From Escherichia coli (lineage in GTDB: Bacteria; Pseudomonadota; Gammaproteobacteria; Enterobacterales; Enterobacteriaceae), in assembly GCF_046105845.1 (NCBI RefSeq), contig NZ_CP151004.1: a DNA stretch of 64,000 bases; one strand, written 5' to 3'. The notes beneath the pieces were generated by a model, which worked only from the letters and a program-made list of their open reading frames with translations, had not been told where the DNA came from and made no database searches. Below, piece after piece: positions 2,725-19,020 of the stretch. The position numbers were made by a program, and so were the translations under genes. Each line of letters begins with the position of its first letter. The first letter of the stretch is position 1.

Positions 2725-3288
2725 GTGCCTGAACGCGGATTCACACTTCTGGAAATCATGCTGGTGATTTTCCTTATCGGCCTTGCCAGTGCGGGCGTGG
2801 TACAGACGTTTGCGACCGCTTCAGAGCCGCCTGCGAAAAAAGCGGCGCAGGATTTTCTGACTCGCTTTGCGCAGTTTAAGGACAGGGCAGTGATCGAAGG
2901 GCAAACACTCGGTGTACTAATCGATCCTCCTGGCTATCAGTTTATGCAGCGTCGTCACGGGCAGTGGTTGCCCGTTTCTGCGACCCGCTTATCGGCACAG
3001 GTTACGGTGCCAAAACAGGTGCAGATGCTGTTACAACCCGGCAGTGATATCTGGCAGAAGGAGTATGCGCTGGAACTGCAGCGTCGTCGCCTGACGCTGC
3101 ACGATATTGAACTGGAGCTGCAAAAAGAGGCGAAAAAGAAGACGCCGCAGATCCGTTTTTCGCCTTTTGAACCCGCCACGCCGTTTACGCTGCGCTTCTA
3201 CTCGGCGGCGCAAAACGCATGTTGGGCGGTAAAACTGGCACACGATGGCGTGTTATCCCTCAATCAATGTGATGAGAGGATGCCATGA
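2725..3288 (+). CDS. gspH: Type II secretion minor pseudopilin GspH
   Basis: GTG start; N-terminal GFTLLEIMLV prepilin motif. Confidence 0.85.
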   Translation: MPERGFTLLEIMLVIFLIGLASAGVVQTFATASEPPAKKAAQDFLTRFAQFKDRAVIEGQTLGVLIDPPGYQFMQRRHGQWLPVSATRLSAQVTVPKQVQMLLQPGSDIWQKEYALELQRRRLTLHDIELELQKEAKKKTPQIRFSPFEPATPFTLRFYSAAQNACWAVKLAHDGVLSLNQCDERMP

Positions 3289-3656
3289 AGCGCGGATTTA
3301 CCTTGCTGGAAGTGATGCTCGCGCTGGCGATTTTTGCGCTGGCGGCCACGGCGGTGTTACAGATTGCCAGCGGTGCGCTGAGTAATCAGCACGTTCTTGA
3401 GGAAAAAACAGTAGCGGGCTGGGTAGCTGAAAACCAGACCGCGCTGCTCTACCTGATGACCCGCGAGCAGCGGGTGGTCAGGCACCAGGGCGAGAGTGAT
3501 ATGGCAGGAAGCCGCTGGTACTGGCGAACCACACCGCTGAATACCGGTAACGCGCTGCTCCAGGCGGTGGATATTGAAGTCAGCCGTCACGAAGATTTTT
3601 CGTCGGTGATTCAGTCACGACGCGCCTGGTTTAGCGCCGTGGGAGGCCAACAGTGA
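3285..3656 (+). CDS. gspI: Type II secretion minor pseudopilin GspI
   Basis: N-terminal KRGFTLLEVMLA prepilin motif; ATGA overlap with gspH stop. Confidence 0.87.
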   Translation: MKRGFTLLEVMLALAIFALAATAVLQIASGALSNQHVLEEKTVAGWVAENQTALLYLMTREQRVVRHQGESDMAGSRWYWRTTPLNTGNALLQAVDIEVSRHEDFSSVIQSRRAWFSAVGGQQ

Positions 3657-7092: not shown

Positions 7093-7168
7093 TGGTGCCC
7101 GGACTCGGAATCGAACCAAGGACACGGGGATTTTCAATCCCCTGCTCTACCGACTGAGCTATCCGGGC
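7093..7168 (-). tRNA. pheV: tRNA-Phe (anticodon GAA)
   Basis: Reverse complement reads the 76-nt E. coli tRNA-Phe sequence, GCCCGGATAGCTCAGTCGGTAGAGCAGGGGATTGAAAATCCCCGTGTCCTTGGTTCGATTCCGAGTCCGGGCACCA. Confidence 0.96.
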
Positions 7169-12012: not shown

Positions 12013-13119
<1,107 letters not shown>

Positions 13120-13156
13120 TTATGCAAGTTGCCGGAGGCGTGCTCCGGCACTGTTT

Positions 13157-13435
<279 letters not shown>

Positions 13436-13459
13436 TCATCCTCTTTATCGACTCACGCG

Positions 13460-14512
13460 CTAAACCGGCGCGCCAGTGCGTAACTGCTGTAACAAACGCT
13501 CCACGGGAGCCGCCAGGCCAACTGACGGCGGTTGCGCTAAGTTATACCAGAGCGCATTGCCTTCATCCATGCAGCCGGTGAATGACGACACGGGAAGCCA
13601 CATAGGCACAATATCTAAGTGGAAATGGCTGAAGGTATGCCGAAACGCGGTCAGCTGCGTCAGGTTATCGGCAGAAATCTGTCGTTGCGCCAGCCACTGC
13701 CGCAAACTTTCTTCATCGGCAAACTGCGGGAAACAGTATAAACCGCCCCACAATCCGCTCGGCGGACGCTGCGCCAGCAATACTTCATCTTCGTGCTGTA
13801 ACAGCAAAAAGTAGCCGGTGCGCTCTGGCAGCGTCTGTTTCGGTTTTTTGCCCGGATAAAGCGACCAGCTATTGTTGGCGGCGGCAATACATCCGTTTTG
13901 TAGCGGACAGAGCGAACATTTCGGCTTAGAGCGCGTACAAATCATCGCGCCCAAATCCATCATCGCCTGATTAAACCGTTCCACGCCAACCGCGGGCGTC
14001 ACCTGCTCGCTCAAACTCCATAGTTTATTCTCGACCTCTTTTTTCCCAGGCCAGCCGCTTACAGCATAGCAGCGCGCCAGCACCCGTTTGACGTTACCGT
14101 CGAGAATCGGAAAGTGCTTACCCAGAGAAAGCGAGAGAATCGCGCCTGCGGTGGAACGCCCGACGCCCGGTAACGCCGCGACTTCTTCAAAGGTTTCCGG
14201 GAATTTACCGCCGTGTAAGGTCGCCACTTGTTGTGCCGCTTTATGCAGATTGCGCGCGCGGGCGTAATAGCCAAGCCCGGTCCACAAGTGGAGAACTTCG
14301 TCCAGCGGCGCATTGGCGAGATCGGTCACCGTTGGGAAGCGCGCCATAAAGCGTTCAAAATAGGGGATAACGGTCGCAACCTGAGTTTGTTGCAACATCA
14401 CTTCTGAGAGCCATACTTTGTAGGGCGTCTTGTCAATTTGCCAGGGCAGCGTTTTCCGCCCGTATTTATCGTACCAGTCCAGAGCCTGGGCTGAAAATTG
14501 CGACGCTTGCAT
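13460..14512 (-). CDS. mutY: Adenine DNA glycosylase MutY
   Basis: 350-aa product from MQASQFSAQ; [4Fe-4S] Cys cluster CxxxxxxCxxCxxxxxC near residue 190; track ORF extends 10 codons upstream. Confidence 0.93.
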
Positions 14513-14672
14513 GGTCACCGAATTCACTGTTGTTGGGGGCAAGATTGCAGCACAGCGACGGCAGGGTGTAAACCGGAACTTTCCGCAGCCACGGCCTTAT
14601 CATGCTTGCATCCGGCAACTAACTTTGGATAATGCCCGTTTTCAGAACACTTTCACAAGCGACTAAATCTTT

Positions 14673-15392
14673 ATGAAAAACGACGTCATCTCACCGGAAT
14701 TTGATGAAAACGGCCGCCCGCTGCGCCGTATCCGTAGTTTTGTGCGCCGCCAGGGGCGACTGACCAAAGGCCAGGAACATGCGCTGGAAAACTACTGGCC
14801 GGTGATGGGCGTTGAGTTCAGCGAAGATATGCTGGATTTCCCTGCGCTTTTTGGCCGTGAAGCGCCGGTGACGCTTGAGATTGGTTTCGGCATGGGGGCG
14901 TCGCTGGTGGCAATGGCTAAAGATCGCCCCGAGCAGGACTTCCTCGGCATTGAAGTGCATTCACCGGGCGTTGGTGCGTGCCTGGCTTCTGCGCATGAAG
15001 AGGGCTTAAGCAACCTGCGCGTGATGTGTCACGATGCGGTTGAAGTGCTGCATAAAATGATTCCTGACAATTCATTGCGCATGGTGCAGCTCTTTTTCCC
15101 TGACCCGTGGCACAAAGCGCGCCATAATAAACGCCGTATCGTTCAGGTGCCGTTTGCCGAACTGGTAAAAAGCAAACTGCAACTGGGGGGCGTATTCCAT
15201 ATGGCGACCGACTGGGAACCTTATGCGGAACATATGCTTGAAGTGATGTCTTCTATTGACGGTTATAAAAACCTGTCAGAGAGCAATGATTACGTACCTC
15301 GTCCGGCATCACGTCCGGTGACGAAATTTGAACAACGTGGTCATCGTCTTGGTCACGGAGTATGGGACTTAATGTTCGAGAGGGTGAAATAA
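14673..15392 (+). CDS. trmB: tRNA (guanine-N7)-methyltransferase
   Basis: 239-aa ORF; stop overlaps yggL start (TAATG). Confidence 0.93.
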
Positions 15393-15718
15393 TGGCAAAG
15401 AACCGTAGCCGTCGTCTGCGTAAAAAAATGCACATCGACGAATTCCAGGAATTAGGATTTTCGGTGGCATGGCGATTCCCGGAAGGTACATCGGAAGAAC
15501 AGATTGATAAAACCGTTGATGACTTTATTAACGAGGTTATCGAACCGAACAAACTGGCCTTTGACGGCAGCGGTTATCTGGCCTGGGAAGGTCTGATCTG
15601 CATGCAGGAAATCGGCAAATGCACCGAAGAACATCAGGCGATTGTGCGTAAGTGGCTGGAAGAGCGCAAACTGGGCGAGGTACGCACCAGCGAACTTTTC
15701 GACGTTTGGTGGGACTAA
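15392..15718 (+). CDS. yggL: DUF469 protein YggL
   Basis: 108-aa product from [12 protein letters not shown]. Confidence 0.9.
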   Translation: MAKNRSRRLRKKMHIDEFQELGFSVAWRFPEGTSEEQIDKTVDDFINEVIEPNKLAFDGSGYLAWEGLICMQEIGKCTEEHQAIVRKWLEERKLGEVRTSELFDVWWD

Positions 15719-15760
15719 GAAAGCATACGGGCGATGACAAAGTTAAAAAAAGCGCTCGGA

Positions 15761-15872
15761 TAGTCCCCTCGCCCCTCCGGGGAGAGGGTTAGGGTGAGGG
15801 GAACAGACCAGCACTGGCGCGATTATTTACCCTCACCCCGACCCTCTCCCTAAAAGGGCGAGGGGGAAAACC
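15761..15872. repeat. GC-rich composite palindromic intergenic repeat (two inverted copies of a ~40-bp motif)
   Basis: Left arm CCCCTCGCCCCTCCGGGGAGAGGGTTAGGGTGAGGG; reverse complement of right arm CCCCCTCGCCCTTTTAGGGAGAGGGTCGGGGTGAGGG; arms about 20 bp apart. Confidence 0.55.
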
Positions 15873-15954
15873 GTGCCCCTTTTGACTTTTAAGCCAGTTT
15901 GTTATCAATCTGGGGCCAGCAAATGCTGGCCTGATTTGTTCTTGAGGGAAGACT

Positions 15955-16674
15955 ATGATGCGCAAAATGCTGCTGGCGGCAGCACTTTCAGTGACGGCAA
16001 TGACCGCTCACGCCGACTACCAGTGCAGCGTCACGCCGCGTGACGATGTGATTGTCAGCCCGCAAACCGTGCAGGTGAAGGGCGAAAACGGCAATCTGGT
16101 GATCACGCCAGACGGCAACGTGATGTATAACGGTAAGCAATATTCCCTGAATGCCGCCCAGCGCGAGCAGGCGAAGGATTATCAGGCTGAACTGCGTAGC
16201 ACGCTGCCGTGGATTGATGAAGGTGCGAAAAGCCGCGTCGAGAAAGCCCGTATTGCGCTGGATAAAATTATCGTTCAGGAGATGGGCGAAAGCAGCAAAA
16301 TGCGCAGCCGTCTGACCAAACTTGATGCGCAGCTGAAAGAGCAGATGAACCGCATTATCGAAACGCGCAGCGATGGCCTGACGTTTCACTATAAAGCCAT
16401 TGATCAGGTTCGCGCCGAAGGCCAGCAATTAGTGAATCAGGCAATGGGCGGAATTTTACAGGACAGCATTAATGAAATGGGCGCGAAAGCGGTGCTGAAA
16501 AGCGGCGGTAACCCATTACAGAATGTGCTGGGAAGCCTGGGCGGTCTGCAATCCTCAATCCAAACCGAATGGAAAAAGCAGGAAAAAGATTTCCAACAGT
16601 TTGGCAAAGATGTTTGTAGCCGCGTTGTGACTCTGGAAGATAGCCGCAAAGCCCTGGTCGGGAATTTAAAATAA
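15955..16674 (+). CDS. yggN: DUF2884 periplasmic protein YggN
   Basis: 239-aa ORF with signal peptide. Confidence 0.88.
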   Translation: MMRKMLLAAALSVTAMTAHADYQCSVTPRDDVIVSPQTVQVKGENGNLVITPDGNVMYNGKQYSLNAAQREQAKDYQAELRSTLPWIDEGAKSRVEKARIALDKIIVQEMGESSKMRSRLTKLDAQLKEQMNRIIETRSDGLTFHYKAIDQVRAEGQQLVNQAMGGILQDSINEMGAKAVLKSGGNPLQNVLGSLGGLQSSIQTEWKKQEKDFQQFGKDVCSRVVTLEDSRKALVGNLK

Positions 16675-16688
16675 TCCTCTATTTTAAG

Positions 16689-16722
16689 ACGGCATAATAC
16701 TTTTTTATGCCGTTTAATTCTT
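16689..16722 (+). terminator. Rho-independent terminator after yggN
   Basis: Stem ACGGCATA/TATGCCGT followed by T-rich tract. Confidence 0.5.
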
Positions 16723-16849
16723 CGTTTTGTTACCTGCCTCTAACTTTGTAGATCTCCAAAATATATTCACGTTGTAAATTGTTTAACGTCAAATTTCCCA
16801 TACAAAGCTAAGGGATAATGCGTAGCGTTCACGTAACTGGAGGAATGAA

Positions 16850-17896
16850 ATGGAGTTTTTCAAAAAGACGGCACTTGCCGCACTGGTTATGGGTTTTAGT
16901 GGTGCAGCATTGGCATTACCCAATATCACCATTTTAGCAACCGGCGGGACCATTGCCGGTGGTGGTGACTCCGCAACCAAATCTAACTACACAGCGGGTA
17001 AAGTTGGCGTAGAAAATCTGGTTAATGCGGTGCCGCAACTGAAGGACATTGCGAACGTTAAAGGCGAGCAGGTAGTGAATATCGGCTCCCAGGACATGAA
17101 CGATAATGTCTGGCTGACACTGGCGAAAAAAATTAACACCGACTGCGATAAAACCGACGGCTTCGTCATTACCCACGGTACCGACACGATGGAAGAAACC
17201 GCTTACTTCCTCGACCTGACGGTGAAATGCGACAAACCGGTGGTGATGGTCGGCGCAATGCGCCCGTCCACGTCCATGAGCGCAGACGGTCCATTCAACC
17301 TGTATAACGCGGTAGTGACCGCAGCTGATAAAGCCTCCGCTAATCGTGGCGTGCTGGTGGTGATGAACGACACCGTACTGGACGGTCGCGATGTCACCAA
17401 AACCAACACCACCGACGTAGCGACCTTCAAGTCTGTTAACTACGGTCCTCTGGGATACATTCACAACGGTAAGATTGACTACCAACGTACCCCGGCACGT
17501 AAGCACACCAGCGATACGCCGTTCGATATCTCTAAGCTGAATGAGCTGCCGAAAGTCGGCATCGTTTATAACTACGCTAACGCATCCGATCTTCCGGCTA
17601 AAGCACTGGTAGATGCGGGCTATGATGGCATCGTTAGCGCTGGTGTGGGTAATGGTAACCTGTATAAATCCGTGTTCGACACCCTTGCAACCGCCGCGAA
17701 AAACGGCACTGCAGTCGTGCGTTCTTCCCGCGTACCGACGGGCGCTACCACTCAGGATGCCGAAGTGGATGATGCGAAATATGGCTTCGTGGCCTCTGGC
17801 ACGCTGAACCCGCAAAAAGCGCGCGTTCTGCTGCAACTGGCTCTGACGCAAACCAAAGATCCGCAGCAGATCCAGCAGATCTTCAATCAGTACTAA
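16850..17896 (+). CDS. ansB: Periplasmic L-asparaginase II
   Basis: 348-aa ORF with signal peptide; asparaginase motifs (TGGTIAG, HGTDTMEET). Confidence 0.95.
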   Translation: MEFFKKTALAALVMGFSGAALALPNITILATGGTIAGGGDSATKSNYTAGKVGVENLVNAVPQLKDIANVKGEQVVNIGSQDMNDNVWLTLAKKINTDCDKTDGFVITHGTDTMEETAYFLDLTVKCDKPVVMVGAMRPSTSMSADGPFNLYNAVVTAADKASANRGVLVVMNDTVLDGRDVTKTNTTDVATFKSVNYGPLGYIHNGKIDYQRTPARKHTSDTPFDISKLNELPKVGIVYNYANASDLPAKALVDAGYDGIVSAGVGNGNLYKSVFDTLATAAKNGTAVVRSSRVPTGATTQDAEVDDAKYGFVASGTLNPQKARVLLQLALTQTKDPQQIQQIFNQY

Positions 17897-17903
17897 TCAC
17901 CTC

Positions 17904-17929
17904 GCCCCGGTAACGTGCCGGGGCTTTTT
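17904..17929 (+). terminator. Rho-independent terminator of ansB
   Basis: GCCCCGG-TAACGTG-CCGGGGC followed by TTTTT. Confidence 0.7.
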
Positions 17930-18012
17930 CACTTCAGACTTACGTCCATTGCCAATTTTCATTACCCTGATGATAATCACTGGAATAAATTATTCCGCGA
18001 GAGGGTTTTCGG

Positions 18013-19020
18013 GTGAAAAAGCAATGGATTGTTGGCACGGCGCTGCTTATGTTGATGACTGGTAATGTCTGGGCAGATGGCGAACCGCCAACTGAAAATA
18101 TCTTAAAAGATCAATTCAAAAAGCAGTATCACGGCATTCTCAAGCTTGATGCTATCACCTTAAAAAATCTTGATGCTAAGGGTAATCAGGCCACCTGGTC
18201 AGCGGAAGGCGATGTCTCTTCCAGTGACGATCTCTATACCTGGGTCGGTCAGTTGGCAGATTACGAACTGCTCGAACAGACCTGGACGAAAGATAAACCG
18301 GTAAAATTCTCGGCGATGTTAACCAGTAAAGGAACGCCCGCGTCTGGCTGGTCGGTGAACTTTTACTCTTTTCAGGCGGCAGCCAGCGATCGTGGACGGG
18401 TGGTCGACGATATCAAAACGAATAATAAATATCTGATCGTGAATAGCGAAGATTTCAATTATCGCTTTAGTCAGCTTGAGACTGCGTTGAATACCCAGAA
18501 GAACTCGATTCCTGCGCTGGAAAAGGAAGTGAAAGCGCTTGATAAGCAAATGGTGGCGGCGCAGAAAGCAGCGGATGCATATTGGGGAAAAGATGCAAAC
18601 GGTAAGCAAATGACCCGCGAAGACGCATTTAAAAAAATTCACCAACAGCGTGATGAGTTTAATAAACAGAACGATAGCGAGGCGTTCGCGATTAAATATG
18701 ACAAAGAGGTTTATCAACCGGCGATTGCGGCATGTCATAAACAGAGTGCAGAGTGTTATGAAGTGCCGATTCAGCAGAAGCGAGAATTCGATATCAACGA
18801 ACAACGGCGACAGACTTTTCTGCAATCACAAAAAATTAGCCGTAAATTGCAGGATGACTGGATAACGCTCGAAAAAGGGCAATATCCGTTAACGATGAAA
18901 GTTTCAGAAATAAACAGTAAAAAAGTCGCGATTTTGATGAAAATTGACGATATCAATCAGGCTAATGAACGCTGGAAAAAAGATACCGAACAATTGCGGC
19001 GCAATGGAGTGATTAAGTAA
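18013..19020 (+). CDS. yggM: DUF1202 periplasmic protein YggM
   Basis: 335-aa ORF, GTG start, signal peptide. Confidence 0.88.
   Translation: MKKQWIVGTALLMLMTGNVWADGEPPTENILKDQFKKQYHGILKLDAITLKNLDAKGNQATWSAEGDVSSSDDLYTWVGQLADYELLEQTWTKDKPVKFSAMLTSKGTPASGWSVNFYSFQAAASDRGRVVDDIKTNNKYLIVNSEDFNYRFSQLETALNTQKNSIPALEKEVKALDKQMVAAQKAADAYWGKDANGKQMTREDAFKKIHQQRDEFNKQNDSEAFAIKYDKEVYQPAIAACHKQSAECYEVPIQQKREFDINEQRRQTFLQSQKISRKLQDDWITLEKGQYPLTMKVSEINSKKVAILMKIDDINQANERWKKDTEQLRRNGVIK

Follow-up and report, generated by a model that had tools for sequence, protein, structure and literature searches.

The window, a 64-kb stretch of Escherichia coli DNA, covers the genomic region mutY-trmB-yggL-yggN-ansB, with trmB immediately upstream of yggL. 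An earlier note had reported a GC-rich composite palindrome at positions 15761-15872 of the window, placed it between yggL and yggN, and hesitantly likened it to Box C. The palindrome indeed lies wholly between these genes, in the interval running from the yggL stop at 15718 to the yggN start at 15955, and RefSeq records have no annotated feature beneath it. Its extent proved larger than described: the homologous, self-complementary unit reaches from 15733 to 15911, beginning 15 nt past the yggL stop codon and ending with the yggN start codon 44 nt downstream. The features of the interval are as follows.

15392 to 15718, + strand: yggL coding sequence, stop at 15718 (open reading frame list; RefSeq annotation of identical DNA)
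15733 to 15911, unstranded: full repeated unit, a 179-bp end-to-end imperfect palindrome (paralogue alignments, empty-site comparison)
15733 to 15743, + strand: left end motif GATGACAAAGT, resembling a terminal inverted repeat (kept in the REP allele and in paralogues)
15744 to 15765, + strand: left outer arm, an A-tract plus GCGCTCGGATAGTC, pairing with the right outer arm (fold, family alignment)
15766 to 15800, + strand: BoxC/TMECO unit, type A (TTA loop), exact consensus match
15766 to 15841, unstranded: 76-bp segment deleted in the short allele (alignment, junction census)
15801 to 15829, unstranded: spacer GAACAGACCAGCACTGGCGCGATTATTTA, the loop of the long hairpin, conserved among paired copies (family alignment)
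15830 to 15864, − strand: BoxC/TMECO unit, type-B-like (TCG loop), exact consensus match (Table 1 of Holder 2015)
15865 to 15895, + strand: right outer arm GGAAAACCGTGCCCCTTTTGACTTTTAAGCC (paralogue alignments, fold)
15896 to 15911, + strand: right end motif AGTTTGTTATCAATCT (kept in the REP allele)
15913 to 15942, + strand: conserved intrinsic-terminator-like hairpin GGGCCAGCAAATGCTGGCC plus T-rich tail (terminator scan, outgroup spacers)
15955 to 16674, + strand: yggN coding sequence, start at 15955 (open reading frame list; RefSeq annotation of identical DNA)

The segment GGGGAGAGGGTTAGGGTGAGGGG at 15779-15801, matched 0 times in 100 shuffles, has its near-complement, CCCTCACCCCGACCCTCTCCC, at 15830-15850, and a repeat search delimited 57-nt arms at 15747-15803 and 15827-15883 that are 75% complementary with 23 nt between them. 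The GC-rich inner cores of the arms pair almost perfectly, as had been claimed for the arms as a whole, while the outer portions pair less well; the consensus cores described below stand 27-29 nt apart rather than about 20 bp. Folded as RNA, the + strand of 15745-15890 reached −81.7 kcal/mol with z −6.64 and its − strand −89.3 kcal/mol with z −7.58, values that show the palindrome to be real, with 0 of 200 dinucleotide shuffles matching the native fold on either strand; the DNA fold gave −40.5 kcal/mol (z −5.9). The entire insert folds into one hairpin, with z from −6.6 to −8.1 across folds. The only hairpin flagged by a terminator scan was that at 15913-15932, with a T-rich tail on to 15942, the stem and loop of the palindrome exceeding the size limits of the scan. 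This hairpin was found in all genera sampled and is outside the repeat, which adjoins its upstream side. A promoter scan of 15300-16100 gave no sigma-70-like promoter. A known structured-RNA family was rejected for the palindrome: no Rfam family reached gathering score there in a scan of the whole window (whose sole match above that score was a tRNA gene at 7096-7168 on the − strand), and a permissive E-value scan of 15300-16300 returned only weak microRNA-type hairpin matches, below threshold.

The published consensus for BoxC/TMECO, CCCTCNCCC-N3-6-GGGNGAGGG-N3-GGGNGAGGG (Holder 2015, PMC4666352), has two exact matches in the window, one on each strand of the palindrome and nowhere else, where 0 are expected from shuffles. 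The + strand unit (15766-15800) is identical to K-12 TMECO no. 23, and the TCG loop of the − strand unit (15830-15864) also occurs in the K-12 type-B units TMECO nos. 12 and 20. In a standard pair, a unit of type A (TTA) is accompanied by an inverted unit of type B (CCG) (Holder 2015, PMC4666352), with the two types close together on opposite strands (Holder 2015, PMC4666352; Kaplan 2016, PMC5100583); inverted A+B pairs were counted at five K-12 sites (Holder 2015, PMC4666352). The window has this paired form, a type A (TTA) unit together with an inverted unit bearing a TCG loop. The G-quadruplex (G4) motif HPG1, GGGAGAGGGTTAGGGTGAGGG, is exact at 15780-15800 (+), inside the type-A unit, and the − strand G4 motif, GGGAGAGGGTCGGGGTGAGGG, is HPG2 (GGGAGAGGGCCGGGGTGAGGG) with one mismatch, so that both belong to these motifs as defined by either 21-mer with at most one mismatch (Kaplan 2016, PMC5100583). 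A three-mismatch match to the double G-block motif (GCGTGCGGGTATGGGCGCGGG) at 28514-28534 (+) of the window is probably due to chance, shuffles giving up to two such matches.

The family has been found under several names. Its discovery as a palindromic repeat in the early 1990s is credited, as relayed by Holder 2015 (PMC4666352), to Bergler 1992 and Leung 1991; it was later encountered anew by the Maher laboratory, which named its members 'PIT' elements (Hoyne/Maher 2000), and it reappears as the TMECO triplex motif (Holder 2015, PMC4666352) and as the HPG1/HPG2 G-quadruplex motifs (Kaplan 2016, PMC5100583). Copy number is put at about 20-30 per E. coli genome, with 23 in MG1655, and the unit length usually quoted is 34-56 bp. 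Judged by its consensus matches, the palindrome at 15766-15864 is an inverted pair of BoxC repeats, an ordinary member of the family, which vindicates the hedged Box C-like call. The 'composite' palindrome consists of a BoxC unit of each type, inverted in the A+B manner already known, and it occurs here as a rare allele. The earlier note was also right that it is not a REP: no REP seed (GCC[G/T]GATG.CG...CG.CTTATC[C/A]GGCCTAC) occurs in 15733-15911, those of the window lying at 26561, 26605, 27056 and 32623.

Of the 5,426 complete E. coli genomes, 5,418 had matches to a 126-bp query, dispersed over a median of 17 places each (range 1-30). The sequence is therefore not single-copy, and its reading as a repeat family, which had been left to a copy-number check, stands. 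Nearly all places were chromosomal (83,668 of 83,705, or 99.96%); BoxC was almost absent from phage records, and 'plasmid' matches came chiefly from mislabelled chromosomes and megaplasmids, the family being nearly absent from true plasmids. BoxC is described in published work as having no association with transposons, phages or plasmids. Among side matches, the records of Campylobacter phages A18a and A11a each had BoxC-core-like blastn matches at 3 places (91% over 58 nt), and many alpha-proteobacterial megaplasmids (Azospirillum, Rhizobium/Sinorhizobium) had such matches at up to 21 places per record; these may represent contamination or a related GC-rich repeat. In other genera only a core of ~45 nt is common, often as tandem arrays, and this core is very highly conserved; the long unit described below was rejected for these genera, its flanks not being conserved and only the ~45-nt core being shared. 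In 12 or more species from other genera, Kosakonia, Pseudocitrobacter, Enterobacter and Pluralibacter among them, a BoxC core stands 10-20 nt past the yggN stop (at about 3605-3650 of the extracted loci, about 1200 in one), and in several of these species BoxC-containing repeats, each very roughly 75-120 bp long, follow it in tandem arrays; the corresponding E. coli site (window 16675-16720) holds a plain terminator only.

Within E. coli, homology among copies reaches well outside the 35-nt cores. We aligned the paralogues at gcvP-ygfF, yijF-gldA, fepB-entC, alx-sstT and hrpB-mrcB, which share the order GATGACAAAGT (from 15733), A-tract, GCGCTCGGATAGT, unit A, a spacer of 27-29 nt, unit B and GAAAACCGTGCC; in the gcvP-ygfF and yijF-gldA copies homology extends to GCCAGTTTGTTAnCAATCT (15911). 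The gcvP-ygfF copy, at 1496-1675 of the extracted locus in K-12, is 87% identical to the window unit over all 179 bp, long-unit copies in general are 75-87% identical to it, and at least five full-length copies occur in one genome. At gcvP, about 2,400 of 5,425 genomes are without the BoxC pair, and also without the whole ygfF gene, having instead roughly 110 bp with a single REP; homology between the two states is lost 1-3 nt short of GATGACAAAGT, immediately past the gcvP terminator, and this break defines where the 179-bp unit starts on its left side. The left half of the unit aligns to the reverse complement of the right half over its whole length, ends included. The right end motif contains TTTGTTATC, an inverted copy of the left end; over the 11-mers, GATGACAAAGT and AGTTTGTTATC match at 9/11 positions, a likeness inseparable from the general symmetry of a unit that is palindromic throughout. 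The motif GATGACAAA has its only exact occurrence in the 64-kb window at the left end of the unit, and end motifs of this type are no general companion of the window's REPs. Two solo BoxC units of K-12 are partial versions of the same structure: that at fimH-gntP is a left half, 92.6% identical to the window's and followed directly by a REP, and that at adk-hemH is unit A plus a right tail ending in ATCAGCAATCTCAG. Taking these alignments together, the repeated unit is 179 bp long with the BoxC pair as its core, and the K-12 solo units are long units that have been cut short.

In Citrobacter, Salmonella, Klebsiella, Enterobacter and Pluralibacter the yggL-yggN spacer is only 49-56 bp and consists essentially of the terminator-like hairpin, GGGGCCAGCAnnTGCTGGCCC with its T-rich tail, which follows the yggL stop at once. 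The window spacer measures 236 bp, so that the insert is 184 bp relative to this empty site, with a boundary ambiguous by GGG; this GGG is the only candidate target-site duplication and is too short for significance. In all Escherichia sampled an insert is present between GCATACGGG and GGGCCAGCA. Among 80 species loci, which include two labelled Escherichia sp. and in which E. fergusonii, E. marmotae and E. ruysiae could not be recognised by name, none had BoxC at yggL-yggN, and the insert was found in Escherichia only. As the outgroup spacers indicate, the insert entered a site that is otherwise empty, bounded by the yggL stop and the conserved terminator hairpin.

Three alleles of this insert were found in E. 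coli. The prevalent one, in ~98.8% of genomes and also in the four other Escherichia species sampled, has a REP pair as its core (a BIME of 103 bp, for example in strains APEC17 and CM19), occupying exactly the place of the BoxC core (window 15742-15897); with it, 182-183 bp separate yggL from yggN in the E. coli representative, in E. albertii and E. whittamii, and in Escherichia sp. E1V33. The REP alleles keep the ends of the BoxC long unit, CGATGACAAA on the left and, where the spacer was read through, TTTGTTATCAATCTG on the right. At yggL-yggN of Escherichia sp. MOD1-EC7003, alternating REPs form an expanded BIME array of >300 bp in place of a single pair, at about 2825-3130 of the extracted locus. 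A junction-specific census found BoxC-type alleles in 64 of the 5,426 complete genomes; it relied on a junction query, a 60-nt spacer query having been discarded as unspecific because it shares 28-mers with paralogues. The full BoxC pair accounts for 53 of these (~1% of complete E. coli genomes) and a short allele for 11 (for example strains A_5 and N3). The short allele is missing the 76 bp at 15766-15841, a segment flanked by direct CCCTC repeats at 15766 and 15842, and retains a single CCCCTCTCCC-TAAAA-GGGCGAGGGG hairpin. 'Palindrome effect' deletions and hypervariable BoxC loci have been described (Holder 2015, PMC4666352), and the short allele is a derivative of the full BoxC allele, by the same kind of decay (Holder 2015, PMC4666352).

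The full allele occurs on at least five flanking haplotypes, whose identity to the window over 6 kb is 98.5-99.1%; some REP-allele genomes are nearer the window over the same distance (99.3%) than the carriers are, and within 250 bp the flanks are identical between a carrier and some non-carriers. Over 12800-18800 the best identity to any complete genome was about 99.1-99.3%, and no complete genome has the window's haplotype, although strain 19KM1831 is 100% identical to it over the 651 bp that surround the BoxC pair. A blastn search of 5,426 genomes with the 156-bp core gave no copy at least 95% identical at another locus, the closest donor candidate being gcvP-ygfF at 91.5%. An exact-pattern scan of metagenomes for the window-specific spacer gave three contigs, all of the yggL-yggN locus, and no donor copy of the full allele was found among the 5,426 genomes or the scanned metagenomes. 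The ends that the REP allele keeps are features of the BoxC long unit, so the long unit would have been inserted first and the REP core would have come later; we think that a BoxC long unit was probably inserted in the Escherichia ancestor and its core later exchanged for REPs. The REP allele is also that of E. albertii, which is basal in the genus, and this makes simple retention of the BoxC core as a polymorphism unlikely. The full core in ~1% of E. coli could reflect re-conversion from a paralogue via the short terminal homologies, or else retention or introgression; since no donor exceeds 92% identity and there are at least five carrier haplotypes, the history of the allele is not that of a simple recent event.

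We consider the best account of these observations, and a likely one, to be that the BoxC pair is the core of a 179-bp palindromic unit, a structured, non-autonomous repeat lying in the yggL 3′ UTR and without locus-specific function. As such the insert would be structure-forming 'junk or selfish' DNA that does not move by itself. A locus-specific function is argued against by the ~98.8% of E. coli and every other species sampled that are without BoxC here; it is argued against also by published work, in which PIT elements had no promoter or terminator activity in assays and BoxC had no association with gene function (Holder 2015, PMC4666352). If the hairpin at 15913-15932 terminates yggL, the insert would be transcribed as part of the yggL 3′ UTR; if it terminates only partially, the insert would form part of a yggL-yggN intercistronic RNA. 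The transcribed insert is predicted to fold into a very stable hairpin, of about −82 kcal/mol. REP stem-loops act as 3′ exonuclease barriers, and by analogy with the REP pair the BoxC hairpin would serve, if at all, as a 3′-end stem-loop barrier, likely with the same mild effect. Transcription of the insert, like any effect on yggL or yggN mRNA, is something we infer. At the DNA level the palindromic, G-rich structure may make the insert unstable, and such instability would account both for slippage deletion between the CCCTC repeats and for turnover between BoxC and REP cores while the ends persist. The conservation of the core across genera and the triplex and G4 structures formed in vitro leave room for a sequence-specific function or a protein partner.

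We hold as a minority possibility that BoxC pairs, being more than 35-nt motifs, form the centre of a ~180-bp cassette that is specific to Escherichia, can move or be exchanged, and has defined inverted ends GATGACAAAGT ... AGTTTGTTATC; the ends would persist and the core would be swapped, BoxC for REP/BIME, by end-directed exchange or by short-homology gene conversion between dispersed copies. Such a cassette, if real, would account for the 'instability' of BoxC loci and for the solo units, which would be its decay products. An element resembling a MITE, in which a transposase or recombinase acting in trans on those same ends would move or exchange the 179-bp unit, is in our judgment unlikely; on this account the REP-for-BoxC difference would itself be an end-directed cassette exchange. 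The filled and empty sites, the imperfect 9/11 terminal inverted repeats, the five or more full-length copies in one genome, the ends kept although the core differs, the gcvP homology break exactly at the end of the unit and the possible GGG duplication at the insertion point all fit such an element. Set against them, no cognate transposase is known, no copy looks recent since all are 75-87% identical to the window unit, copies at least 95% identical are absent from other loci of any E. coli genome, phages and true plasmids have next to none of the family, other genera share the core alone without the long-unit flanks, and the GGG is too short to count as a duplication.

Quite unlikely, in our view, is a non-B-DNA switch, in which the G-rich blocks would toggle among duplex, hairpin or cruciform, G-quadruplex and intrastrand triplex and thereby tune yggN transcription or termination after yggL. 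Canonical G4 motifs are present on both strands of the pair, and oligonucleotides of these types form triplex by CD and NMR in vitro (Holder 2015, PMC4666352) and G4 and hairpin in vitro, from which a switch was proposed (Kaplan 2016, PMC5100583). Nonetheless, published in-vivo DMS footprinting showed guanine cleavage like that of the control, that is, no triplex protection, and published tests gave neither promoter or terminator activity nor a link to gene class or distance; there is no promoter-like site in 15300-16100, and the near-universal lack of BoxC at this locus, in ~98.8% of E. coli and all other genera sampled, means that no locus-specific regulation by it is required. It is very unlikely that the insert provides yggL or antisense transcripts with an additional intrinsic terminator: the large GC-rich hairpin does have an A-tract to its left and a T-rich run to its right, giving a hairpin followed by CCCCTTTTGACTTTT on the + strand and by GCGCTTTTTTTAAC on the − strand, but a canonical, cross-genus terminator hairpin already stands immediately downstream, the T-rich right tail is not conserved in paralogues, and PIT elements were without terminator activity. 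A chance or locus-unique palindrome, or a small-RNA gene, can point to the hairpin itself and to the sub-threshold Rfam microRNA-type matches, and we dismiss it as extremely improbable, given thousands of homologous copies (a copy number that already refutes it), 0 of 200 shuffles folding as well, no Rfam family at gathering score, and equal folding of both strands, which is typical of a DNA palindrome and not of a strand-specific RNA.

Read as a structured, non-autonomous BoxC repeat, the insert can be compared with known systems. It resembles the BoxC/PIT/TMECO/HPG family in its both-strand consensus, its inverted A+B pair with conserved spacer, its intergenic, chromosomal and multi-copy nature, and its strain-polymorphic locus with a 'palindrome effect' deletion derivative at yggL-yggN; it differs in the TCG rather than CCG loop of its B unit and in being a 179-bp unit with defined ends rather than the usual 34-56 bp. 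K-12 has no BoxC at yggL-yggN, Table 1 of Holder 2015 (PMC4666352) having no entry near 3.10 Mb, and no yggL, yggN, trmB or ansB string occurs in the supplements of that paper, whose 63 TMECO loci may or may not include this one (Holder 2015, PMC4666352). REP/BIME elements are like it in forming an intergenic, 3′-UTR, GC-rich pair of inverted hairpins, two REPs holding the very same position in the alternative allele, and unlike it in that the BoxC unit has no similarity to the REP consensus; REPs moreover have a RAYT transposase relative, and we know of no transposase relative for BoxC. MITEs (ERIC/IRU, Correia/NEMIS, RUP) share a size of about 100-200 bp, palindromic form, TIR-like ends, filled and empty sites and co-transcription into long RNA hairpins, and the BoxC unit is set apart from them in that no cognate IS or transposase is known for it, its candidate target-site duplication is unconvincing, and near-identical copies that would point to recent movement are lacking. 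The RSA repeat of E. coli, which the earlier note had also named, is likewise intergenic and enterobacterial and, at about 152 bp, roughly as long. Published work already covers the repeat family and its capacity for G4, triplex and hairpin structures, as well as the inverted A+B pairs and the hypervariable nature of the loci, and Bachellier et al. 1997 reportedly described boxC insertions at polymorphic BIME sites; the 179-bp unit with its ends, the empty-site and REP-core alleles at yggL-yggN and the truncated solo units may go beyond the literature that we found.

For genome annotation, then, this is a routine member of a family described since 1992 that RefSeq leaves unannotated, and nothing new is required to explain it. 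The survival of the 179-bp unit's ends in the REP allele, together with the truncated state of K-12 solo units, suggests that the basic unit of the family has been under-described. This is an ordinary strain-variable BoxC copy, with a moderate upside were cassette exchange to be shown. The three-allele series of REP pair, full BoxC pair and slippage-deleted remnant, together with the empty site of the outgroups, makes a clean natural system, one that bears on the effect of BoxC on the expression of neighbouring genes and on whether BoxC turnover proceeds by structure-driven deletion, by conversion between copies or by true mobility.
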